Positions 1 through 24,627 of a stretch of DNA of 57,578 nucleotides are shown in pieces. Positions within the stretch are counted from its first letter, which is position 1; each line of letters starts with the position of its first letter. The translations under genes and the position numbers were made by a program. Below the pieces are notes generated by a model, which had not been told where the DNA came from, ran no database searches, and was given only the letters and a program-made list of their open reading frames with translations. The DNA comes from a virus. Its lineage: Duplodnaviria; Caudoviricetes. The DNA lies in the IMG/VR virus record IMGVR_UViG_3300017647_000281, positions 1 through 57,578 of that record; one strand, given 5' to 3'.

Positions 1-867
1 GTGGCGAGTCTCGACAACCACATATTCATGGCTCTAAGCCATTACAGAAGTTTGATCTCGGCCCACTTTGAGTGTCCGGTTCTGGCATACACCGGCCCGA
101 TTCACCCGGCCGTTCTGAGCTCTTATGTGGGGGCAATCGAGCACGTGGTGGGGGAGGTCACCAAAGACCATGCGCCTGGTCGGGTCTGCATAATCCTGGC
201 CACCCCCGGTGGCGTTGTCGAAGCAGTGGAGAAGATGGTTGAGGTCACTCGACACCACTTCACTGAGGTCTTCTTCGTCGTACCGACCGCCGCTATGTCT
301 GCCGGCACAATCTTCTGCATGTCCGGCGACAAGATCTACATGGACTACACGTCATCACTGGGCCCAATAGACCCGCAAGTCTCCCTTGAGAATGGGAGTC
401 TGGTGCCAGCGCTGGGCTACATCGATAAGGTGAACGAGCTGATCGATAAGTCAGCCAACGGCCGGCTGACCGATGCCGAACTGCTCATGCTGCAGCGGCT
501 TGACCTCGCAACCCTGCGTCGATACGAACAGGCGCGAGACCTCTCGGTAAGCCTTTTGAAGCAATGGCTCGTCAAGTACAAGTTCAAAGACTGGACTGTG
601 CACGCGAAAACTCATCCAGGAACCCCGGTTTCGGCCGATGAGAAGGAAGCACGCGCCGTGCAGATCGCCAAAGACTTGAGCGACAACAATCGTTGGCACT
701 CGCACGGGCGTATGATCGGAATTAGTACGCTAACCGATAGTCTGAAGCTTCGGATTGAGGACTATACGAACGAAGCGGACCTTAGGCAGAATCTGCGCAT
801 TTATTCTGAGTTGCTTGCTGAACACGCAGAAAGACAGCAATCGACTTTCTTGCTTCACTACACATGA
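1..867 (+). CDS. SDH-family (ClpP/SppA-fold) serine protease, moron
   Basis: Motifs TPGG, AMSAGT (catalytic Ser), LGPIDPQ (Asp), HSHG (His); opposite strand to late genes; start is at the window edge and uncertain. Confidence 0.8.
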   Translation: MASLDNHIFMALSHYRSLISAHFECPVLAYTGPIHPAVLSSYVGAIEHVVGEVTKDHAPGRVCIILATPGGVVEAVEKMVEVTRHHFTEVFFVVPTAAMSAGTIFCMSGDKIYMDYTSSLGPIDPQVSLENGSLVPALGYIDKVNELIDKSANGRLTDAELLMLQRLDLATLRRYEQARDLSVSLLKQWLVKYKFKDWTVHAKTHPGTPVSADEKEARAVQIAKDLSDNNRWHSHGRMIGISTLTDSLKLRIEDYTNEADLRQNLRIYSELLAEHAERQQSTFLLHYT

Positions 868-1757: not shown

Positions 1758-2230
1758 GCTGCAGCCCCCACGGCCTTCAGGTAGTTCGCCGGCCACTCCG
1801 CCGGCCGAGGCTTACCGGGACGCCAAACCCTCGCGTAGAGCTTCCAACCTCCCGCGGTATCGCCCAGCGCCGGGAGGGGCTGCGCATCGGTCCAAAGCAG
1901 CAAGCGGGCCAGGGCCGCGGCCAGGATGTCGTCCCGCTCAATCGCCTCCCACACCGCCTGCTCGGTAGGCTCTACACCGCGCTGCGCGCAGATACCGGCA
2001 GCGAGCCTTGCCGAAGCCGGGTGCATCAGCACTCCATGCACGCCACCGCCCCGCTCGTTTTGCCAGAAGCCACGCGCCGGCCCGTTACCGAGTTGGCGCC
2101 GATAAAGGAAGCCCGACTCCTGCAGGCCGATGCTCAGCAGCATGGCAATGGCCTGGGGACTAGTCATGCGGGCAGGCAGCAACGCCAGCGCCGGCTCGAG
2201 GATCGAGCGGCGCACCTGGATCAATTCCAT
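1754..2230 (-). CDS. Putative endolysin (lysozyme/transglycosylase-like)
   Basis: IGLQES...GPARGFWQ motif; immediately upstream of the spanin pair; GGAG RBS before ATG at 2230. Confidence 0.72.
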   Translation of the reverse strand: MELIQVRRSILEPALALLPARMTSPQAIAMLLSIGLQESGFLYRRQLGNGPARGFWQNERGGGVHGVLMHPASARLAAGICAQRGVEPTEQAVWEAIERDDILAAALARLLLWTDAQPLPALGDTAGGWKLYARVWRPGKPRPAEWPANYLKAVGAAA

Positions 2231-2321
2231 AGGCATCTCCAGAAACGAAAATGCCCGCCTATCGGCGGGCATGGTGGGTGAAGGTCTTGCTATCCTCTGG
2301 CCGCCAATTGGAGGGCGACCG

Positions 2322-2471
2322 ATGAAGGAACAACGGAAGTTGCGCGGGCTGCGCGCCCACGTCGACGAACTACTGAGCCAGGGCTGGCAAATCTCGGCGC
2401 GCGAACCGCTGGCCCTAAAGCGTGGCCGGCAGCGCCTGCACTACCGACACGGGATGCTGGTCAGCGCCTGA
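2322..2471 (+). CDS. Small basic hypothetical protein (49 aa)
   Basis: GGAGG RBS, ATG at 2322, ends at a bidirectional terminator. Confidence 0.6.
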   Translation: MKEQRKLRGLRAHVDELLSQGWQISAREPLALKRGRQRLHYRHGMLVSA

Positions 2472-2475
2472 ATTG

Positions 2476-2502
2476 AAAAGCCCGCCAGACGGCGGGCTTT
2501 TT
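2476..2502. terminator. Bidirectional intrinsic terminator
   Basis: AAAAGCCCGCC-AGAC-GGCGGGCTTTTT. Confidence 0.85.
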
Positions 2503-2504
2503 GA

Positions 2505-2837
2505 TTACTCCGGCCGGGCGGTGTGCCAGCCGCCCTTCGCCATGCGCTTTTGCACCATCTGCTGATAGGCGCCAGGTTCTGGCGGGTTTTTGCGCTGGTG
2601 CCGACGGTGATTGCACACGATGCACGCCGCGGCGATGTTGCTGGCCTGATTGCTTCCACCATCCTGACGCGCGCGCAGGTGCTCGGCGGTGCATTGGAAT
2701 GCACGCGCCTGCTGGCGGGAAACGCCATGGTGTTTGGCGAACTGTTCGGGGGAGGCTTGCCACATCGGGCAACCGCAATAGCAGCAGCGGCCGTGTTGGC
2801 GTTGGAAGGCTTGGGTGCGGGCCTTACGAATGTTCAT
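2505..2837 (-). CDS. HNH endonuclease (110 aa)
   Basis: CCYCGC ... EHLRARQDGGSNQASNIAAACIVCNHRRH zinc-binding HNH motif. Confidence 0.88.
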   Translation of the reverse strand: MNIRKARTQAFQRQHGRCCYCGCPMWQASPEQFAKHHGVSRQQARAFQCTAEHLRARQDGGSNQASNIAAACIVCNHRRHQRKNPPEPGAYQQMVQKRMAKGGWHTARPE

Positions 2838-2847
2838 CTCTGCTCCA

Positions 2848-2984
2848 AGGGCCTGACGGCCCTCCTAGTTAAAGGAAGTCCGTCGTCCGCCTGCAGCGAG
2901 AAGAACGGTGGCCATGTCTGTGACAATGGCCTCAAGGAGTCTAAAGAGAACTCCAGGCACTACCCGTTAGCGGGTAGGTGGCCT
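2848..2984 (-). ncRNA. Candidate structured RNA/leader upstream of the HNH gene
   Basis: Adjacent inverted repeats at 2955-2984, 2936-2954, 2910-2931, 2856-2885 and 2848-2863; no ORF; promoter-like TTGTGC...TAAATT upstream. Confidence 0.55.
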
Positions 2985-3020
2985 GAATTTATTCCATCGC
3001 CCGCTCCTTGCACAACACCC

Positions 3021-3257
3021 TCACACCTCGAAGTCGTACTGCGGCAGGCTTGGCGCCTGCCCTATCACCTGCCCGTCGACCAGGAAGGCGATCTGCCCGG
3101 CCGCCACGCTGGTGCCTCGCGCGACGACCTGGCTGCCTGTACGCAGCTGCAGCACGCTTGTGCCGGCGGCGGCGTCGACACTGACCACCTCCCCGACCGT
3201 CTTGGCGCCGCCCGGCAGCAGGCCGATGAAGCGTTTCCAGGGGTTTACCGTGGCCAT
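3021..3257 (-). CDS. Small tail-tip structural protein
   Basis: Last gene of the translationally coupled tail operon; MATVNPWKRF N-terminus. Confidence 0.65.
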   Translation of the reverse strand: MATVNPWKRFIGLLPGGAKTVGEVVSVDAAAGTSVLQLRTGSQVVARGTSVAAGQIAFLVDGQVIGQAPSLPQYDFEV

Positions 3258-5017
3258 CAACTGCTCCCGTAGTGGCGTTCGATCTTGAGCGTCTGCCAGA
3301 CCTTGCTGGCCCCGATGCCTTCCGCGCTGATGTCGACGCCCAGGCAGAGGCCACGCCAGGTGGCGTCGGGGTCGCGGAACTCCACCAGCATGCCCGGCTG
3401 TACCAGCCCCGGCGCACTGCCGCCCACCTCGAACAGCGGGATGCGCCGCGTCTCGATGGCCTGGCTACCGCCCTTGGACAACTCGCAGATCCCGCGCGAG
3501 CGGCCCACGTCGGTCCCGGTCATCCAGTCATCCATGACATCCGGCGCAGGCTCATCACCGGCCGTTCCTGCGCGGCGCACCTGCACGCTGACCCCGTAGT
3601 TGGTGCCGCTGACGTAGACGAAATTCCACTGCGGCTGTGGGCTCCACTCGCTGCCCCACTCCGCGACGATCTCCGCCGGCACAACGCGGTCAGGCACCGC
3701 TGTGCTCCAGAACCAGGTCGCCTCCCGGTAGCGCGGCAGGATAGTCAGGGAGTCGTCGGCAAGTCCCGGCCGCACGATGCCGCCCGCCACCTCGGCCAGG
3801 CGGTGGATCACCTCCATGGCCGTCATGTCGGTGTAGCTGAAGGCGCCGGCCGGCAGCGTCCAGTCCGGCGGCCCCATGGCCACCGTGTCCCAGCTGGCGG
3901 AAAACCCGGTGTACTCCAGCTGGTCGTCGACCACGTTGCGCGCATTCACCTGCGCGGCGTTCATCCCGCTGCGCTTCGGCGCGTATGGCGACGCCAGCAG
4001 CTGCGTGCGGCTGCCACCGCTGATCGAGTAGCGCTCGCTCGGGTGCTTGCCGCTGCCGCTGTAGCGCTCCATCAGGAAGCGCCACACCCAGCCATTGATT
4101 GTCAGCTCCAGGGTCTTCGGGCCGTCCGCATCCGGCAGCACCAGATTCAGCGAGGTGCGGCCGAAGAGATCCGCAGAGAAAGTCCAGGCGAAGCTGTCGA
4201 TGTCCAGGCCGATGCGGATGTTGGTGGCATCCAGGGGCGTGCCGCTGGGCAGCACCGTGAGCGTCACGGTGTTGGCGATCATGTAGGTCTCCAGAATGTC
4301 GGGCTCTTGCGGCGGATCGATCACCACCACAGGCCCCGGGTAGTCCGGGTAAACGATGCCGGTCGGCTTCGGGTCGGTCGGCGTGCCCCAGCCCCACGGC
4401 AGGGTGCGCATCTGGTCGATGATCCGCGCCGGGGTGAAGCGCACCACCGTGCCACTGTCCACCGGCTGGATGGCATGCGGCCGTGCGGTGTAGCGGAAGT
4501 CGAAGAACACTGAGGCCGTGGTGCTGGGGATGTAGCGCTCCCCCGAGAAGGAGAACTCCACCACTCCGGCCTTCGGGATGTAGAGGCTGGCGGCGCGCTC
4601 GGCAGCAGCATCGAAGCGCTGGCCCAGTTCGTCGCTGCGGAACCAGGCCTGCCCACTGGCGGTGTCCTTGCGCGCCGGCTTCGGGTTGTAGATCAGCCGT
4701 AGGCGGACGTCCTGTCGCTTGATCGAGTGATCCCAACCCAGGTGCTGGGCAAGGTCCTTCTGCGCGACGGTGTCCCAGCTGCAGCCGCCGGCTGCGTCGA
4801 GGCCGCTGCCCTTACCCCAGCTTGAGCCATGCCCTTGATCGGCCGGCGCCACGGTGTCCCAGCGGCCAGCCAGAGAGGCGTTCCGCTCCTCGCCCTGGCC
4901 CCAGGGTGCTGCGGGGGCCACTTCCTTCGCGGCTACCGTCCCCCACATCGAGCGGCGCTCAGGATCGAACTGGCGGCGGGCCTTGCTCCAGCCCGCCACC
5001 GCGTCATGAGTCAGCAT
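3257..5017 (-). CDS. Tail/baseplate hub-like virion protein
   Basis: 586 aa, coupled within the tail operon, beta-rich. Confidence 0.65.
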   Translation of the reverse strand: MLTHDAVAGWSKARRQFDPERRSMWGTVAAKEVAPAAPWGQGEERNASLAGRWDTVAPADQGHGSSWGKGSGLDAAGGCSWDTVAQKDLAQHLGWDHSIKRQDVRLRLIYNPKPARKDTASGQAWFRSDELGQRFDAAAERAASLYIPKAGVVEFSFSGERYIPSTTASVFFDFRYTARPHAIQPVDSGTVVRFTPARIIDQMRTLPWGWGTPTDPKPTGIVYPDYPGPVVVIDPPQEPDILETYMIANTVTLTVLPSGTPLDATNIRIGLDIDSFAWTFSADLFGRTSLNLVLPDADGPKTLELTINGWVWRFLMERYSGSGKHPSERYSISGGSRTQLLASPYAPKRSGMNAAQVNARNVVDDQLEYTGFSASWDTVAMGPPDWTLPAGAFSYTDMTAMEVIHRLAEVAGGIVRPGLADDSLTILPRYREATWFWSTAVPDRVVPAEIVAEWGSEWSPQPQWNFVYVSGTNYGVSVQVRRAGTAGDEPAPDVMDDWMTGTDVGRSRGICELSKGGSQAIETRRIPLFEVGGSAPGLVQPGMLVEFRDPDATWRGLCLGVDISAEGIGASKVWQTLKIERHYGSS

Positions 5018-20606: not shown

Positions 20607-20810
20607 TCAGAAGCCTTTCGAGAAGGAGGCGAAGCGGCGAGTGCCGTTGCTATTGGCGTTCAGGCCCAGGTCGGATTCCATGTGCCGCAGGATCCGGATC
20701 ATTTCGTCGACCGACCGATAGGTGACGCTGCGGTCGGCGAAGCGCACCGACAAGGCGCCTTCGGCGATGGCCGCCTTCAGCGCCTCATACTGTTCCAGGG
20801 TGTAGGCCAT
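20607..20810 (-). CDS. gpW-like head completion protein
   Basis: ALKAAIAEG...V.FADRSVTYRSVDEM, between terL and portal. Confidence 0.85.
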   Translation of the reverse strand: MAYTLEQYEALKAAIAEGALSVRFADRSVTYRSVDEMIRILRHMESDLGLNANSNGTRRFASFSKGF

Positions 20811-22756
20811 CAGTTCCGCTTCCAGTAGTTGGATTTCGCCCGCGGGCGCTCGTCTTCGGTAACAGCCTCGTCGCCGCCTGGCGCCGGCTGTTGCGCCAGC
20901 AGATCCAGGTCAGCGCCGAAGCGCTGTTGGCTAATGCGCAGCGCGGCCAGGGCCCCCACCAGGCAGTCCAGCCCCTCGTTCCGCCGCCCCCTGGCATCCC
21001 AGCGATGCACCCATACGCCGTTGACCAGCTTGCGCAGCTTCTCCTCGGCGACGAGCTGCTTCGTCTCGTTCTCGTCGCAGATGTCGTCGTTCGCTGGCAG
21101 GTGGATGACGCCTGGCTGCGAGATGCCGGCCTGCGACTTCACCGTGTCGACGGGCATCCGGTAGCGGCCGTAGACCAGCTCCTTGGCGTTGTCGGTCCCG
21201 ATCTCGGTCAGGTAGACCTTGCTGACCTTGCTGCGCGTGCGCGGCATGTTGGCGATCGGCTTGCCGTACTGGCTTGCCCCCTTGGTGGGGACCACCCAGA
21301 GCACGCCATGCTTGCGGCTCTCTGCGTACACCTCGTCGGTGTAGTGGCCACCGGAGTCCCAGCCCCAGCGGTCGACCTTCATCACCAGGCCATCCGCTCG
21401 GGTGAACTGCCGCTGCAGTTCCAGGCCAACCTTGCGCCGGAGTTCCTCGCTGGCCGGGTCGCCCATGAGGATGAATCGGTGCACCAGCCAGGCCTCCTCG
21501 CCCGGCCCCCATGCCCATACGCGGCCCTCGTAGCGGTCGTCCTGGGTGTCGATGAAGCCGGTCAGCAGCACCGCCAGGGCCGGCACCTGACCGGTCCATA
21601 CCTCGCGGCGGCCGTACAGCACCTCCCAGTCGACCTTCTCGCCTTCGCTCTCGTCGAACGTCTCGCCCAGGGTGGTGTTGACGAAGGTCTTTAGCTTGTT
21701 GCGGTCGTCCTTGGCCTTGAGAAAGTCCAGGACGATCCGCCCCCAGGTCGTGAACGGGCTGTAGGCCGTCCAGACGTGGAAGGTGACCGACTCCGGCGTT
21801 GGCATGGCGGCGCCGTCGGCGTCGTAGAAGTCCAGAGCATCGCGAGTCCAGATGCCGGTTCGCTCACACACCCAGCGCCCCCTCGGCTGCTGGGCCTGCA
21901 TCTCGTGCTGCTGCACGTCGCAGCCACTGGCCGCGCACTTGTACCAGGCATCCTGCGGACGCTCAGGCGCCCACTTGATGCCGAACTCGCAATCCTTCCC
22001 GCCCCATAGCAGTGGCTGCTCCACCTGGCAGTGCGGGCAAGGCACGTGCAGGCGAAACAGGTGCGGCGACTCGCCGGCCGCCGCCTCGATCTGGCAGGTT
22101 CCTTTGATCTTCGGCGTGCTGCCCCGGATCGATTTCGGGAACGTCGAGCCCTCGATGCGCTTGTCGCCAAGGAATGTCGGCGAGCCCTCTTTCTCCACGT
22201 CAGGCTCGAAGGCCGCCAGCTCGTCGTAGATGACCGTGTCGGCCGAGAGCTCCCGGTAGTTCTTCGCCGCCGCCCCGCCGCGGCACCACAGCTGCTTGCC
22301 GTGAGTGAAGCGCTTGGTGTCCAGCGTGTTGTCGCGGTGCTTGGAGCCGTACCACGGCGCGAGCTCGCGAACGACCGGAACGTCGCGGATCATGGTTTCG
22401 ATCTGCGACTTCATGAAGCCGGCGGCGCTGCCGTCGGTGGGAACCAGGAACAGGATGTTCCGCCGCTTGTGCTCGACCTGGTAGGCGGCAGCAGCCAGCA
22501 GCATCTTGGAATAGCCAACCCGGGCTGACTTGATCACGTTGACGGTACGGATCTCGTCGTTGCCCATGGCGTTCAGGATCGCTACCTGGAAGGGCAGCGT
22601 CTCCCAGGCACCTTCCTGGTAGGACGACTCGCTGGACAGGTAGAAGTTATCGTCCGCCCACTCCACCGGCGTCTGCGGCGCCGGCCGCTCCAGCGGCTTC
22701 AGACCGGCCCGGATGGCCGAGGCGAGCTCAGTCAGCTGTGGTTGCGAGATATTCAT
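20810..22756 (-). CDS. Terminase large subunit (lambda gpA family)
   Basis: KSARVGYSK Walker A, YDEL Walker B, GSTPK. Confidence 0.95.
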   Translation of the reverse strand: MNISQPQLTELASAIRAGLKPLERPAPQTPVEWADDNFYLSSESSYQEGAWETLPFQVAILNAMGNDEIRTVNVIKSARVGYSKMLLAAAAYQVEHKRRNILFLVPTDGSAAGFMKSQIETMIRDVPVVRELAPWYGSKHRDNTLDTKRFTHGKQLWCRGGAAAKNYRELSADTVIYDELAAFEPDVEKEGSPTFLGDKRIEGSTFPKSIRGSTPKIKGTCQIEAAAGESPHLFRLHVPCPHCQVEQPLLWGGKDCEFGIKWAPERPQDAWYKCAASGCDVQQHEMQAQQPRGRWVCERTGIWTRDALDFYDADGAAMPTPESVTFHVWTAYSPFTTWGRIVLDFLKAKDDRNKLKTFVNTTLGETFDESEGEKVDWEVLYGRREVWTGQVPALAVLLTGFIDTQDDRYEGRVWAWGPGEEAWLVHRFILMGDPASEELRRKVGLELQRQFTRADGLVMKVDRWGWDSGGHYTDEVYAESRKHGVLWVVPTKGASQYGKPIANMPRTRSKVSKVYLTEIGTDNAKELVYGRYRMPVDTVKSQAGISQPGVIHLPANDDICDENETKQLVAEEKLRKLVNGVWVHRWDARGRRNEGLDCLVGALAALRISQQRFGADLDLLAQQPAPGGDEAVTEDERPRAKSNYWKRN

Positions 22757-23261
22757 CCAGTAATCCAGGCAGGCGCTCGTCGAGCTGCGCGGCCCGGTTG
22801 CGAGCCTTCGACAGCTCGCGTTGCACCGATTCGATGTGGCGAACCTCAAGGTCCGGGTGGCGCCGTTTCAAGGTCAGGGGCAGGGTGTCGAGGATCGAAG
22901 CGATTTCGGCTGCCAGCTTGGAGAAAGCAAACATGGCGAAGTCCGTCGGCACTGCGCGCCGGCGGCTGATGTCGTTCTTCAGCTCCTGCCCCTCGGCCTG
23001 AGCCGCAGTCAGCCGCAAGCGCTCCTGCGTCAGCTTGTGCTCGGCAAGCGGGTCAATACCCTCGGGGTATTCAGGGTCCGTTTCCGGTTTGACCTGGTTG
23101 CTACCCAGCCCCCGCAGATAGCGGATGTACGCCAGGCGGCAGGCGTCAATGTCGAAGCCGCCCTTCCCCTTCGAACCAGGCAGGACGCCGTCTGCAAGCA
23201 GATTTCGAACCTGCCGGTCGCTCAGGTCGAGGTGCTTCGCTATCTCGATCTGCGTGGCCAT
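22728..23261 (-). CDS. Terminase small subunit (Nu1-like)
   Basis: N-terminal HTH (MATQIEIAKHLDLSDRQVRNL); overlaps terL. Confidence 0.9.
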   Translation of the reverse strand: MATQIEIAKHLDLSDRQVRNLLADGVLPGSKGKGGFDIDACRLAYIRYLRGLGSNQVKPETDPEYPEGIDPLAEHKLTQERLRLTAAQAEGQELKNDISRRRAVPTDFAMFAFSKLAAEIASILDTLPLTLKRRHPDLEVRHIESVQRELSKARNRAAQLDERLPGLLDEYLATTAD

Positions 23262-24297: not shown

Positions 24298-24627
24298 TCA
24301 GCCCTCGCGCTTCGGCAGCTTCCAGTCGGCAAAGCGATCGGCAAGCTCGGCGATCTTCTTCACACCGAGGAAGCCTGTGAACACGCCGGCCGCCGTAGCC
24401 ATGTTCTGGGGCAGGCCGAGCCACTCCATGACGGGGATCAGGCCCAGGGTGATCAGCGTGCAGAGCGCAGCCTCAAGGAACGCCTGCCGACGAGTGCCGC
24501 CGCCATAGATCACGCGGGTAAGTGCGACCAGGAAGGACAGACCGCCTGCGTACAGCACGGGCGCGTGCTGGCTCAGCCACGCGAGCGCAATGGCCAGGAG
24601 CTCGGGCTTGTCGGACATCTTCATCAT
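24298..24627 (-). CDS. Holin, lambda S family, with dual-start motif
   Basis: Three TM segments, GFLGVKKI, basic C-terminus; starts MMKMS. Confidence 0.88.
   Translation of the reverse strand: MMKMSDKPELLAIALAWLSQHAPVLYAGGLSFLVALTRVIYGGGTRRQAFLEAALCTLITLGLIPVMEWLGLPQNMATAAGVFTGFLGVKKIAELADRFADWKLPKREG

Follow-up and report, generated by a model that had tools for sequence, protein, structure and literature searches.

A conserved, covarying leader RNA tied to a family of small HNH nuclease genes on mobile DNA, and its probable role as a translational gate

A 57,578-nt stretch of viral DNA (IMG/VR record IMGVR_UViG_3300017647_000281; Caudoviricetes), referred to here as the window, carries on its minus strand a gene for a stand-alone HNH nuclease of 110 amino acids (aa), and the RNA read from the gap just upstream of this gene is a genuine conserved, covarying structure tied to this HNH family. 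The leader most likely acts in cis as a gate on translation of the nuclease, hiding its ribosome-binding site (RBS), and positions 2251 to 3015 of the window probably form an autonomous, moron-like cassette between the tail and lysis genes of a lambda-like prophage of Pseudomonas type. The original prediction, made from the letters of the window, had proposed a self-contained unit of a multi-hairpin RNA and a minimal HNH nuclease, with an RNA that binds, guides, or neutralises the nuclease or switches its translation. The elements of the leader and its gene are given below by their positions in the window.

2849-2993, minus strand: conserved HNH leader RNA, as covered by the covariance-model match, from the -10 box to just beyond the Shine-Dalgarno (SD) hairpin
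2955-2984, minus strand: P1 hairpin, core CACCUACCCG / CGGGUAGUG, loop CUAA
2936-2954, minus strand: P1a hairpin, GGAGU...ACUCC, an insertion limited to the lineage of the window and loci L028 and L031
2910-2931, minus strand: P2 hairpin, GGCCATTGTC-ACA-GACATGGCC as DNA and GGCCAUUGUC-ACA-GACAUGGCC as RNA
2905-2908, minus strand: strand a, CCGU, directly 3' of P2 and complementary to strand b
2888-2898, minus strand: P3, a small hairpin, CGC-UGCAG-GCG, defined from the alignments
about 2885-2855, minus strand: P4 hairpin, GACGG-A-CTTCCT-TTAACT-AGGAGG-G-CCGTC, read from the sequence
2873-2884, minus strand: 5' arm of P4, with strand b (GACGG), a bulged A, and the anti-SD CUUCCU
2866-2861 and 2859-2855, minus strand: 3' arm of P4, with the SD-like AGGAGG and strand c (CCGUC), respectively
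2848-2863, minus strand: alternative hairpin AGGGCC-GUCA-GGCCCU, which shares strand c and the 3' part of AGGAGG with P4
2846-2843 and 2837-2835, minus strand: proximal SD GGAG (probability of being unpaired, 0.25) and start codon ATG, respectively
2505-2837, minus strand: stand-alone HNH nuclease gene, 110 aa, from Pfam, PHROG, AlphaFold2, and Foldseek

All of the stems listed in the original prediction (P1, GGAGT..ACTCC, GGCCATTGTC-ACA-GACATGGCC, P4, and AGGGCC-GTCA-GGCCCT) were found on the minus strand where it had placed them; P3 (2898-2888) and the competing CCGU strand (2908-2905) were missing from its list. The 183-nt intergenic RNA folded to -79.1 kcal/mol, compared with -62.9 +/- 4.5 kcal/mol for 200 dinucleotide shuffles (z = -3.61), and none of the 200 folded as well.

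Relatives of the nuclease were collected in several ways. Profile searches, counted as clusters at 50% identity, returned 307 HNH clusters at E <= 1e-30, 921 at E <= 1e-10, and 3,268 at E <= 0.001; a word-indexed search gave 22 HNH clusters, viral contigs contributed 34 relatives, and 279 of the 352 pattern matches in species-representative genomes were relatives, the best 80 being retained. After tblastn and ORF (open reading frame) definition, the set comprised 131 loci with 129 ORFs and 105 distinct proteins. Plain BLAST and nhmmer searches with the intergenic DNA of the window reached three loci only (L028, L031, and L106), and the wider leader family emerged only through an all-against-all comparison of upstream regions together with covariance models. 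In that comparison, which used the 300 nt upstream of the HNH genes, the sequences fell into homology groups of 23, 22, 7, 5, 4, and 3 members and smaller ones, with 27 singletons among 105. Sequences of the 23-member group had a promoter and four hairpins in common, the hairpins showing compensatory changes, and the gap of the window aligned with them. A first covariance model, R1, was built from a 26-sequence MAFFT alignment and gave 43 matches at E <= 1 and 33 at E <= 0.005 among 100 sources (99 loci and the window); a second model, R2, was built from these 33 matches.

The original prediction had expected a conserved and covarying RNA upstream of HNH homologs, and R2 bore this out by placing the leader upstream of the HNH gene in 69 of the 100 sources at E <= 0.1, always on the HNH strand. 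The leader measures about 125 to 145 nt and lies directly 5' of the gene: with start codons assigned from the protein alignment, independently of the leader model, the R2 match ended from -5 to +18 nt from the start codon in 63 of the 69 loci, and the AUG of the model fell exactly on the start codon in 50. In the window, R2 scored 60 bits (E = 1.2e-15), which was the single match in the 57.6-kb record, and R1 scored 60.6 bits. When the filters were switched off, R2 also found the leader in the expected place at E <= 0.1 in 8 of 11 Xanthomonadaceae-type loci and 3 of 12 others, with E-values that refer to smaller searches; L051 and L062 were weaker, L052 gave no match, and these searches left out L099, L110, L114, L121, L122, L125, L130, and L131. 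By eye, the unmatched loci L098, L127, L129, and L091 had their strands arranged in the same way, and no such arrangement was visible at the most distant HNH genes (L121, L122, L125, L130, and L131), whose products had 27 to 44% identity, or, in the case of L131, 60% over a stretch of 35 residues only.

Sources of the leader belonged to the Gamma-, Beta-, and Deltaproteobacteria and included Pseudomonas, Halopseudomonas, Aromatoleum/Azoarcus, Methylotenera, Noviherbaspirillum, Massilia, Azonexus, Competibacter, Lysobacter, Stenotrophomonas, Luteibacter, Rhodanobacter, Marinobacterium, and Desulfobulbaceae. Five host genomes contained one leader match each, in every case at the HNH gene, and a sample of genomes at the family level had a match in 2 of 151. 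A metagenome scan with two short conserved motifs and a gap, a pattern that proved too loose, returned 120 stretches, none of the stored ones being an HNH gene or leader, and the same scan of viral contigs found only the known contig L106. In six loci of Desulfobulbaceae type (L043, L049, L072, L088, L074, and L097), the leader match, including its AUG, ended 50 to 110 nt early, and a short upstream ORF or an extra element may intervene before the HNH gene. In many of the database proteins P0023 to P0172, the conserved HNH region begins only at residue 30 to 100, so gene callers may often extend ORFs across the leader. This bears on annotation: many family proteins begin 30 to 100 residues early, and start codons may be miscalled across the leader.

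Covariation was strong in both model-derived alignments. In the 33-sequence alignment, 86.0% of paired cells could pair, compared with 68.9% after shuffling and 40 to 49% when the structure was slid along the alignment; 29 of 35 pairs showed double-sided changes, and covariation was 0.523, against 0.228 for shuffles, a value that 0 of 500 shuffles reached. In the 69-sequence alignment (68 distinct sequences), the corresponding figures were 85.5%, 64.6%, and 40 to 46%, with double-sided changes in 30 of 35 pairs and a covariation of 0.554 versus 0.213 (0 of 500 shuffles). Owing to the fit of these alignments to the model and to the relatedness of the sequences, the shuffle control overstates covariation; relatedness is retained when the structure is slid, yet pairing was still halved. 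RNAalifold on the MAFFT alignment of 26 sequences, which was not fitted to a structure, predicted 23 pairs, 15 of them with compensatory changes. Among 2,275 cells, G-U combinations (325) far exceeded A-C combinations (83), indicating that the folded strand is the HNH-sense RNA.

The signal was spread over all of the helices. Compensatory changes affected 9 of 10 pairs in the helix homologous to P1, all 9 pairs in the two P2 helices, and 4 of 4 pairs in P3; P4 was 84 to 100% paired and also had compensatory changes. P1a was present as GGAGC/GCUCC in L028 and GGUG/CACC in L031 and was missing from the other 23 aligned leaders. A relative with 94.5% identity from sequencing run X15 carried two compensatory double changes in P2 (2929/2912, C-G to U-A; 2927/2914, A-U to G-C) and differed in P3 in loop bases 2893 to 2895 alone. 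A GGGCC-loop-GGCCC-like hairpin, corresponding to the alternative hairpin of the window, was seen by eye in L025, L027, L028, L030, L040, L056, and L108.

The most conserved helix of the family is P4, with the form GCGG-A-CUUCCU ... AGGAGG-CCGC, and in most members the start codon follows directly. Within its 5' arm, CGGA was invariant in the 26-sequence alignment. In the ensemble of folds, the AGGAGG of the window had a probability of 0.01 of being unpaired, and the SD was similarly buried (0.00 to 0.04) in five of six folded leaders; in the sixth, L026, the SD before the start codon had a value of 0.24. Two further strands, strand a (CCGU, the four to five bases after P2) and strand c (CCGY, after the SD), are each complementary to strand b (GCGG). 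The three strands changed together, as CCAC/GUGG/CCAC in L061 and as CCCGU/GCGGG/CCCGC in many Beta- and Deltaproteobacteria, and strands a and b changed together as CCUGC/GCAGG in L073, CCCAU/GUGGG in L071, and CCGCC/GGCGG in L033. Cognate a.b and b.c duplexes were better than those with permuted partners (0 of 300 permutations in each case), whereas the a.c control failed (247 of 300). Double-change cells for a.b numbered 10, against 2.6 expected (0 of 500 shuffles), in columns that were not fitted to a.b.

By nearest-neighbour energies, the state with the b.c clamp was favoured over the state in which a.b was enforced by 5 to 7 kcal/mol (-74.6 versus -67.9 kcal/mol in the window and -50.4 versus -45.7 kcal/mol in L029). 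Once a.b was enforced, the minimum-energy fold of the window contained the alternative hairpin at 2863-2848, consistent with the earlier claim that this hairpin and P4 exclude each other. Of the roles that the original prediction had offered for the RNA, a switch of translation agrees best with these results, since SD and anti-SD pair in the best-conserved helix and covariation is seen in two helices that exclude each other.

We therefore propose a mechanism in which P4 would pair the anti-SD CUUCCU with the SD AGGAGG, and a clamp of 4 to 5 bp between strand b (GCGG) and strand c (CCGC) would lock it. With P4 locked, the RBS would be buried at equilibrium and synthesis of the nuclease kept low. 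Strand a could take b from c and remove the clamp, leaving a weaker SD/anti-SD stem of 6 bp; in the subgroup of the window, the freed strand c would also fold into a small GGGCC...GGCCC hairpin. The choice between a.b and b.c would set the level of translation. As both competing helices covary, clean mutational tests of this scheme are possible. The idea of a leader peptide was rejected: an RUG after P1 opens frames of approximately 3 to 34 codons, with apparent stops in the P2 loop by eye. No conserved internal -35/-10 pair was seen by eye within the leader in the alignments.

Because the leader is restricted to one protein family and keeps an elaborate P1-P2-P3 domain, something specific presumably reads the RNA. 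Our leading guess for the effector is, on the same grounds, the HNH protein itself, that is, autogenous control, or else co-transcriptional kinetics, in preference to a general metabolite; the simplest candidate reader of the RNA would be the nuclease itself.

Several observations weigh against a translational gate served by its own promoter, or limit how far it reaches. The column signal for a.b is modest (88.1% paired versus 83.0% shuffled), and the two invariant C's of strand a also pair in the base of P2, where invariant columns cannot discriminate between the two pairings. The 6-bp SD/anti-SD stem is still possible in the a.b state, so "on" may mean only "less off". Alignments derived from covariance models favour the model and the sequences are related, which the slid control and the MAFFT alignment mitigate and do not remove. 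The leader ends 50 to 110 nt ahead of the assigned HNH start in 6 of 69 loci, and in Xanthomonadaceae-type loci the b.c helix lies approximately 10 nt upstream of the AUG, with no clear GGAG by eye. The promoter of the window itself failed a strict consensus scan, which returned 0 promoters in 2150-3150, and within the prophage the leader would also lie on late read-through transcripts. Finally, the sole datum from an RNA library is one 230-nt contig, possibly DNA carry-over, from the soil metatranscriptome run X17. This contig is identical to 2732-2961, covers part of the leader and the 5' end of the HNH gene, and was the only part of 2200-3400 covered in that run; as a contig without transcript ends from an RNA library, it does not prove transcription. 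The sequencing runs were compared as contigs, and uncovered stretches in X17, X19, and X20 are uninformative.

A bolder version of the proposal, which we regard as unlikely, is that the leader is a dedicated sensor or partner RNA, a new class of switch that silences a toxic HNH nuclease until a specific cue arrives. In such a scheme, and on an equally tentative footing, the nuclease might itself supply the cue by binding, or the cue might be a nucleotide messenger or a molecule derived from infection, with prophages, integrative and conjugative elements, and defence islands as carriers. If this were true, the cassette would be a one-gene, RNA-gated defence or addiction module and its leader a second HNH-associated RNA class after HEARO/omega-RNA.

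Among the other explanations, the one that survives best, and is still quite improbable, is that the leader partners the nuclease, in trans or bound to the protein, as its scaffold, guide, or neutralising antitoxin, with translation control being secondary. The exclusive association with one HNH family, at one copy per genome, is typical of RNA-protein partners or autoregulatory operators and not of metabolite riboswitches; the P1-P2-P3 domain exceeds what masking of an SD needs; and the protein is small and basic and has weak HNH-core matches to the HNH domains of IscB and Cas9. The guide and antitoxin roles suggested in the original prediction nevertheless found no footing in the family. The leader lacks a guide-like stretch that is both variable and single-stranded, its variable parts covarying as stems, and the conserved promoter leaves only approximately 7 nt ahead of P1. 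No terminator separates the RNA from the ORF. The protein consists of the HNH core only: the NCBIfam model guided_IscB scored 25.5 bits against a cutoff of 175 bits, over model positions 202 to 241 (the HNH part) alone. As for a ToxIN-like antitoxin, Tandem Repeats Finder returned 0 rows for 2200-3300, and the leader contains no direct repeats.

The partner systems that come closest differ in the same respects. HEARO/omega-RNA, like the leader, is a conserved structured RNA directly 5' of an HNH-containing ORF on mobile DNA, but IscB combines RuvC and HNH in approximately 400 to 500 aa and uses a guide-bearing RNA, whereas here a 110-aa HNH stands alone and the last element of the RNA is an SD hairpin. 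A search of 2300-3300 with the Rfam HEARO model was negative at E <= 10, as was that of eight homologous loci at the gathering score. In type I toxin-antitoxin systems, structure in the 5' untranslated region blocks translation of the toxin, and in type III systems (ToxIN) an RNA lies upstream of the toxin gene. In contrast to these, no antisense RNA gene and no tandem repeats of the 36-nt type are evident here, and the gene encodes a zinc-finger HNH nuclease instead of a membrane peptide or a ToxN RNase.

A ligand-sensing riboswitch, in which a small molecule or second messenger would stabilise a.b and turn the nuclease on, is very unlikely. In its favour, the leader has two mutually exclusive covarying helices that share one switching strand beside an expression platform, and its multi-helix domain has conserved junction nucleotides (UGUUKGG and GGUACCG); the cassette also has defence genes as neighbours, a Pycsar-type TIR effector, GmrSD, and AbiJ among them. 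Translational riboswitches such as the add adenine riboswitch have a switching strand that can enter the SD-masking helix or, alternatively, a helix upstream of it, with both alternatives conserved, and strand b of the leader likewise joins either a or the SD-masking c. Here, however, the upstream helix encloses P3 only, not a whole aptamer, and the leader is restricted to one family: no other gene family was found behind it in the genomes searched (5 of 5 at HNH; 2 of 151 with any match). No Rfam family matched, and the function of the gene points to no candidate ligand. In its restriction to one gene, with the SD inside the structure, the leader resembles autogenous translational operators (ribosomal-protein leaders, T4 gene 32, and regA), in which a leader accompanies the gene of one protein and the SD lies in the structure.

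That the hairpins act on DNA or transcription, whether by terminating or attenuating the tail operon or by serving as a site of recombination or homing, is highly improbable. A simple scan did find a weak terminator-like site within P1 (2966-2954, followed by GAGTTCTCTT), and the cassette occurs at module junctions, near attachment (att) sites and tRNA genes. The excess of G-U over A-C cells nevertheless fits RNA of one strand and not DNA cruciforms, the promoter is conserved upstream of P1, the consensus has no T-run after P1, P2, P3, or P4, and the structure accompanies HNH genes, not tail genes or att sites. We give almost no credence to functionless chance or neutral folding, for although GC-rich intergenic DNA often folds well and the window has a single copy, the z score of -3.61 and the compensatory changes across 69 to 80 loci from several proteobacterial classes speak against it.

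The protein is well supported as an HNH nuclease, in agreement with the earlier description of an intact 110-aa HNH protein. The ORF matched Pfam HNH (PF01844) at 24.7 bits, over the 21.4-bit cutoff (E = 2.6e-5), and PHROG HNH families (best, 1.4e-15). All residues invariant among 22 family sequences (C18, C21, H53, N67, C72, C75, N76, and H80) are kept, and the His/Asn residues of the beta-beta-alpha-metal motif and two CxxC pairs of zinc ligands are present. An AlphaFold2 model had a predicted local distance difference test (pLDDT) score of 90.6. The best solved relative was 4H9D, the 112-aa Gme HNH nicking endonuclease (E = 1.7e-4), which has the same size and the same beta-beta-alpha-metal fold; Foldseek against the PDB returned no row at E <= 0.001, and its top rows were all HNH domains, with 4H9D at a probability of 0.98 and E = 0.01. 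The PADLOC defence models had no meaningful HNH match, the single row being REase_II (E = 0.0089; 13.6 bits). A longer N-terminus is excluded by an in-frame TAG at 2867-2865, and the HNH proteins of the family measure 110 to 130 aa.

The nuclease is distinct from the packaging HNH of phages, as had been claimed. The HNH of HK97 gp74 type is a packaging nuclease of the small-phage-HNH kind, and in HK97-like cos phages its gene adjoins terS/terL at the cos end, whereas the gene of the window, the sole HNH of the record in a six-frame search, lies approximately 20 kb from terS and terL. Also in contrast to small phage HNH proteins, the family carries an additional insert of approximately 25 aa, which separates the first CxxC from the catalytic His, and its members adjoin integrases of filamentous-type prophages or relaxases or sit in defence islands.

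RBS-sequestering hairpins are known to govern the phage homing endonuclease genes I-TevI/II/III and segB and the HNH gene mobE of phage Aeh1 (PMC2988022). There, as in the proposed gate, an RNA structure buries the SD of an endonuclease gene and keeps a potentially harmful nuclease low (PMC2988022). The T-even hairpins are single, phage specific, and relieved by a late promoter inside the structure. The leader here has four helices in approximately 125 nt, is conserved across classes, has its promoter upstream of the whole structure, and includes a competing third strand. Thus, the principle of RBS sequestration of endonuclease genes is known, and the architecture found here is different and far more widely conserved.

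Nor was the motif found in the sources examined. A comparison with Rfam, recommended with the original prediction, produced no family at gathering score (Rfam 15) for the window or for eight homologous loci, and L029 had none at E <= 10; the subthreshold rows for the window lay nearly all on the terminator downstream of the HNH gene. Rfam 15 does not contain this leader family, and the literature searches, with supplements outside the scope, did not bring it to light: the listed motif-catalogue papers had 0 mentions of "HNH endonuclease", and the main text of the paper on 224 motifs had 0 mentions of HNH. A literature search that joined HNH with "riboswitch candidate" and motif returned none, and one that joined HNH endonuclease, RNA motif, and covariation had work on TnpB/IscB and retrons, by title and abstract, among the entries listed. 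A single odd intergenic region has thus led to a widespread, uncatalogued RNA motif, present in at least 69 to 80 of 100 sampled loci, and the leader offers a concrete starting point for asking how a bare nuclease is kept harmless on mobile elements. If the trigger is the HNH protein or an infection signal, then the cassette would be a compact, natural RNA-controlled nuclease module in defence islands.

The core of the cassette (2471-3015) would consist of a weak sigma-70 promoter, a structured 5' leader of approximately 140 nt, the 110-aa HNH gene, and a terminator. The features that frame it and the genes around it are as follows.

2986-3015, minus strand: sigma-70-type promoter, -35 TTGTGC at 3015-3010, 18-nt spacer, -10 TAAATT at 2991-2986
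2471-2506: bidirectional intrinsic terminator common to the HNH gene and the convergent small ORF (inverted repeat I1)
2322-2471, plus strand: convergent ORF of 49 aa with a GGAGG RBS
2251-2272, minus strand: second terminator-like hairpin, just before the putative endolysin gene, at the distal edge of the DNA shared with L031
2838-3020: ORF-free gap of 183 nt between the 79-aa gene and the HNH ORF
3021-3260, minus strand: gene for a 79-aa protein, directly preceding the ORF-free gap
3257-5017, minus strand: gene for a 586-aa tail protein, among the final tail genes
1754-2272: putative endolysin gene, 172 aa, in a PHROG family of "unknown function"
1126-2272: stretch of the putative endolysin gene and the two spanin-like genes that come after it
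20810-22849, minus strand: terL, PHROG 15, lambda gpA-like type
22728-23261, minus strand: terS
among the minus-strand late genes of the record: portal and head-protease fusion

The promoter TTGTGC...TAAATT named in the original prediction is weak and fails the strict scan, but its boxes are conserved. At the equivalent position in homologs, a TAnnnT -10 box was present in 39 of 69, a TTG-type -35 box in 44 of 69, and a spacer of 17 to 18 nt in 59 of 69, and the promoter of the window is taken as real because homologs keep these boxes. With a promoter conserved upstream of P1, transcription should begin a few nucleotides before P1. The prediction that the HNH gene has its own terminator was confirmed by a GC-rich inverted repeat with a T-run at 2471-2506 (GCCCGCC-GTCT-GGCGGGC, flanked by an A-run and a T-run), to which the terminator stems of several Rfam leaders aligned at subthreshold scores. 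A strict scan of 2150-3150 gave no terminator after the HNH gene, probably because the flanking A/T pairs are counted into the stem. A 14-nt segment inside the HNH coding region (2578-2591) is 93% complementary to the terminator arm at 2476-2489 (inverted repeat I2); on the mRNA it would be a second copy of the 5' arm of the terminator and could compete with terminator formation, or it may be due to chance.

The autonomy of the cassette was evident from its neighbours. Matches to sixteen P. aeruginosa phages were confined to the 79-aa gene and the end of the tail gene, 31% of the query, and these phages then continued with other genes; since they have the preceding 79-aa gene without the cassette, the cassette is an insertion relative to them. 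It has its own promoter and terminator, lies between two phage genes, and is missing from related phages, the features by which morons are defined. The prophage of L028 is syntenic, and its tail and HNH proteins have 70% and 59% identity, respectively. L031 and L106, which represent one prophage, have other tail and lysin genes and the same leader, HNH gene, small ORF, and distal terminator. As the idea of a self-contained unit implied, promoter, leader, HNH gene, and terminator recur as a set beside unrelated neighbours.

Across the family, the nearest downstream ORFs included integrases (10 of 67), TrwC relaxases (3), single cases of AbiJ, GmrSD, PIN, and RES, and others, and the 60 nearest upstream ORFs included GmrSD (3), integrases (3), R subunits of type I restriction systems (2), a Pycsar-type TIR effector, and HipA. 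The neighbours differ on both sides, so the cassette has no constant partner gene, and it behaves as an accessory unit of mobile elements and defence islands. This residence among defence genes is the only hint of the anti-phage role that the original prediction had considered. Several Pseudomonas loci have an integrase gene on one side of the cassette and a tRNA-Ser(CGA) or transfer-messenger RNA (tmRNA) gene on the other. In L025, L027, L030, L040, and L056 (at approximately 3650 to 3860) and in L024 (3418-3769), it starts approximately 100 nt past the tRNA-Ser(CGA) or tmRNA gene and a terminator. A direct repeat, GTGTCGAAA-N-GTGTCGAAA, precedes the cassette in Pseudomonas-type loci and possibly represents arm sites of the integrase. 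In L030, a convergent tyrosine integrase gene after the cassette is followed by filamentous-phage-like genes, as judged by eye from the translations.

The 49-aa ORF downstream of the HNH gene had 78% aa identity with its counterpart in L031/L106 and was in no other of the 131 loci. It was accordingly rejected as a general partner of the HNH gene. Searches of this ORF against Pfam, NCBIfam, and PADLOC returned no match, and those against the Atlas returned unnamed clusters only; it could represent another moron, in the opposite orientation, or a partner of the HNH gene in this lineage.

The record as a whole is a 57.6-kb provirus with its late genes on the minus strand. The "endolysin" neighbour of the original prediction fits by position and by the spanin-like genes after it, on which the assignment of 1754-2272 is based, but its sequence had no Pfam match and its PHROG family is of unknown function. 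A holin-like gene (PHROG 126; 24298-24627) lies upstream of terS, approximately 22 kb from the endolysin and spanin-like genes at the other end of the late operon, and the lysis module is therefore split. Just past the spanin-like genes, on the opposite strand, an ORF that runs off the start of the window (1-867, plus strand) encodes a ClpP-like serine protease of SDH type (Pfam PF01972; E = 6.5e-14) and is possibly cargo at the edge of the prophage.

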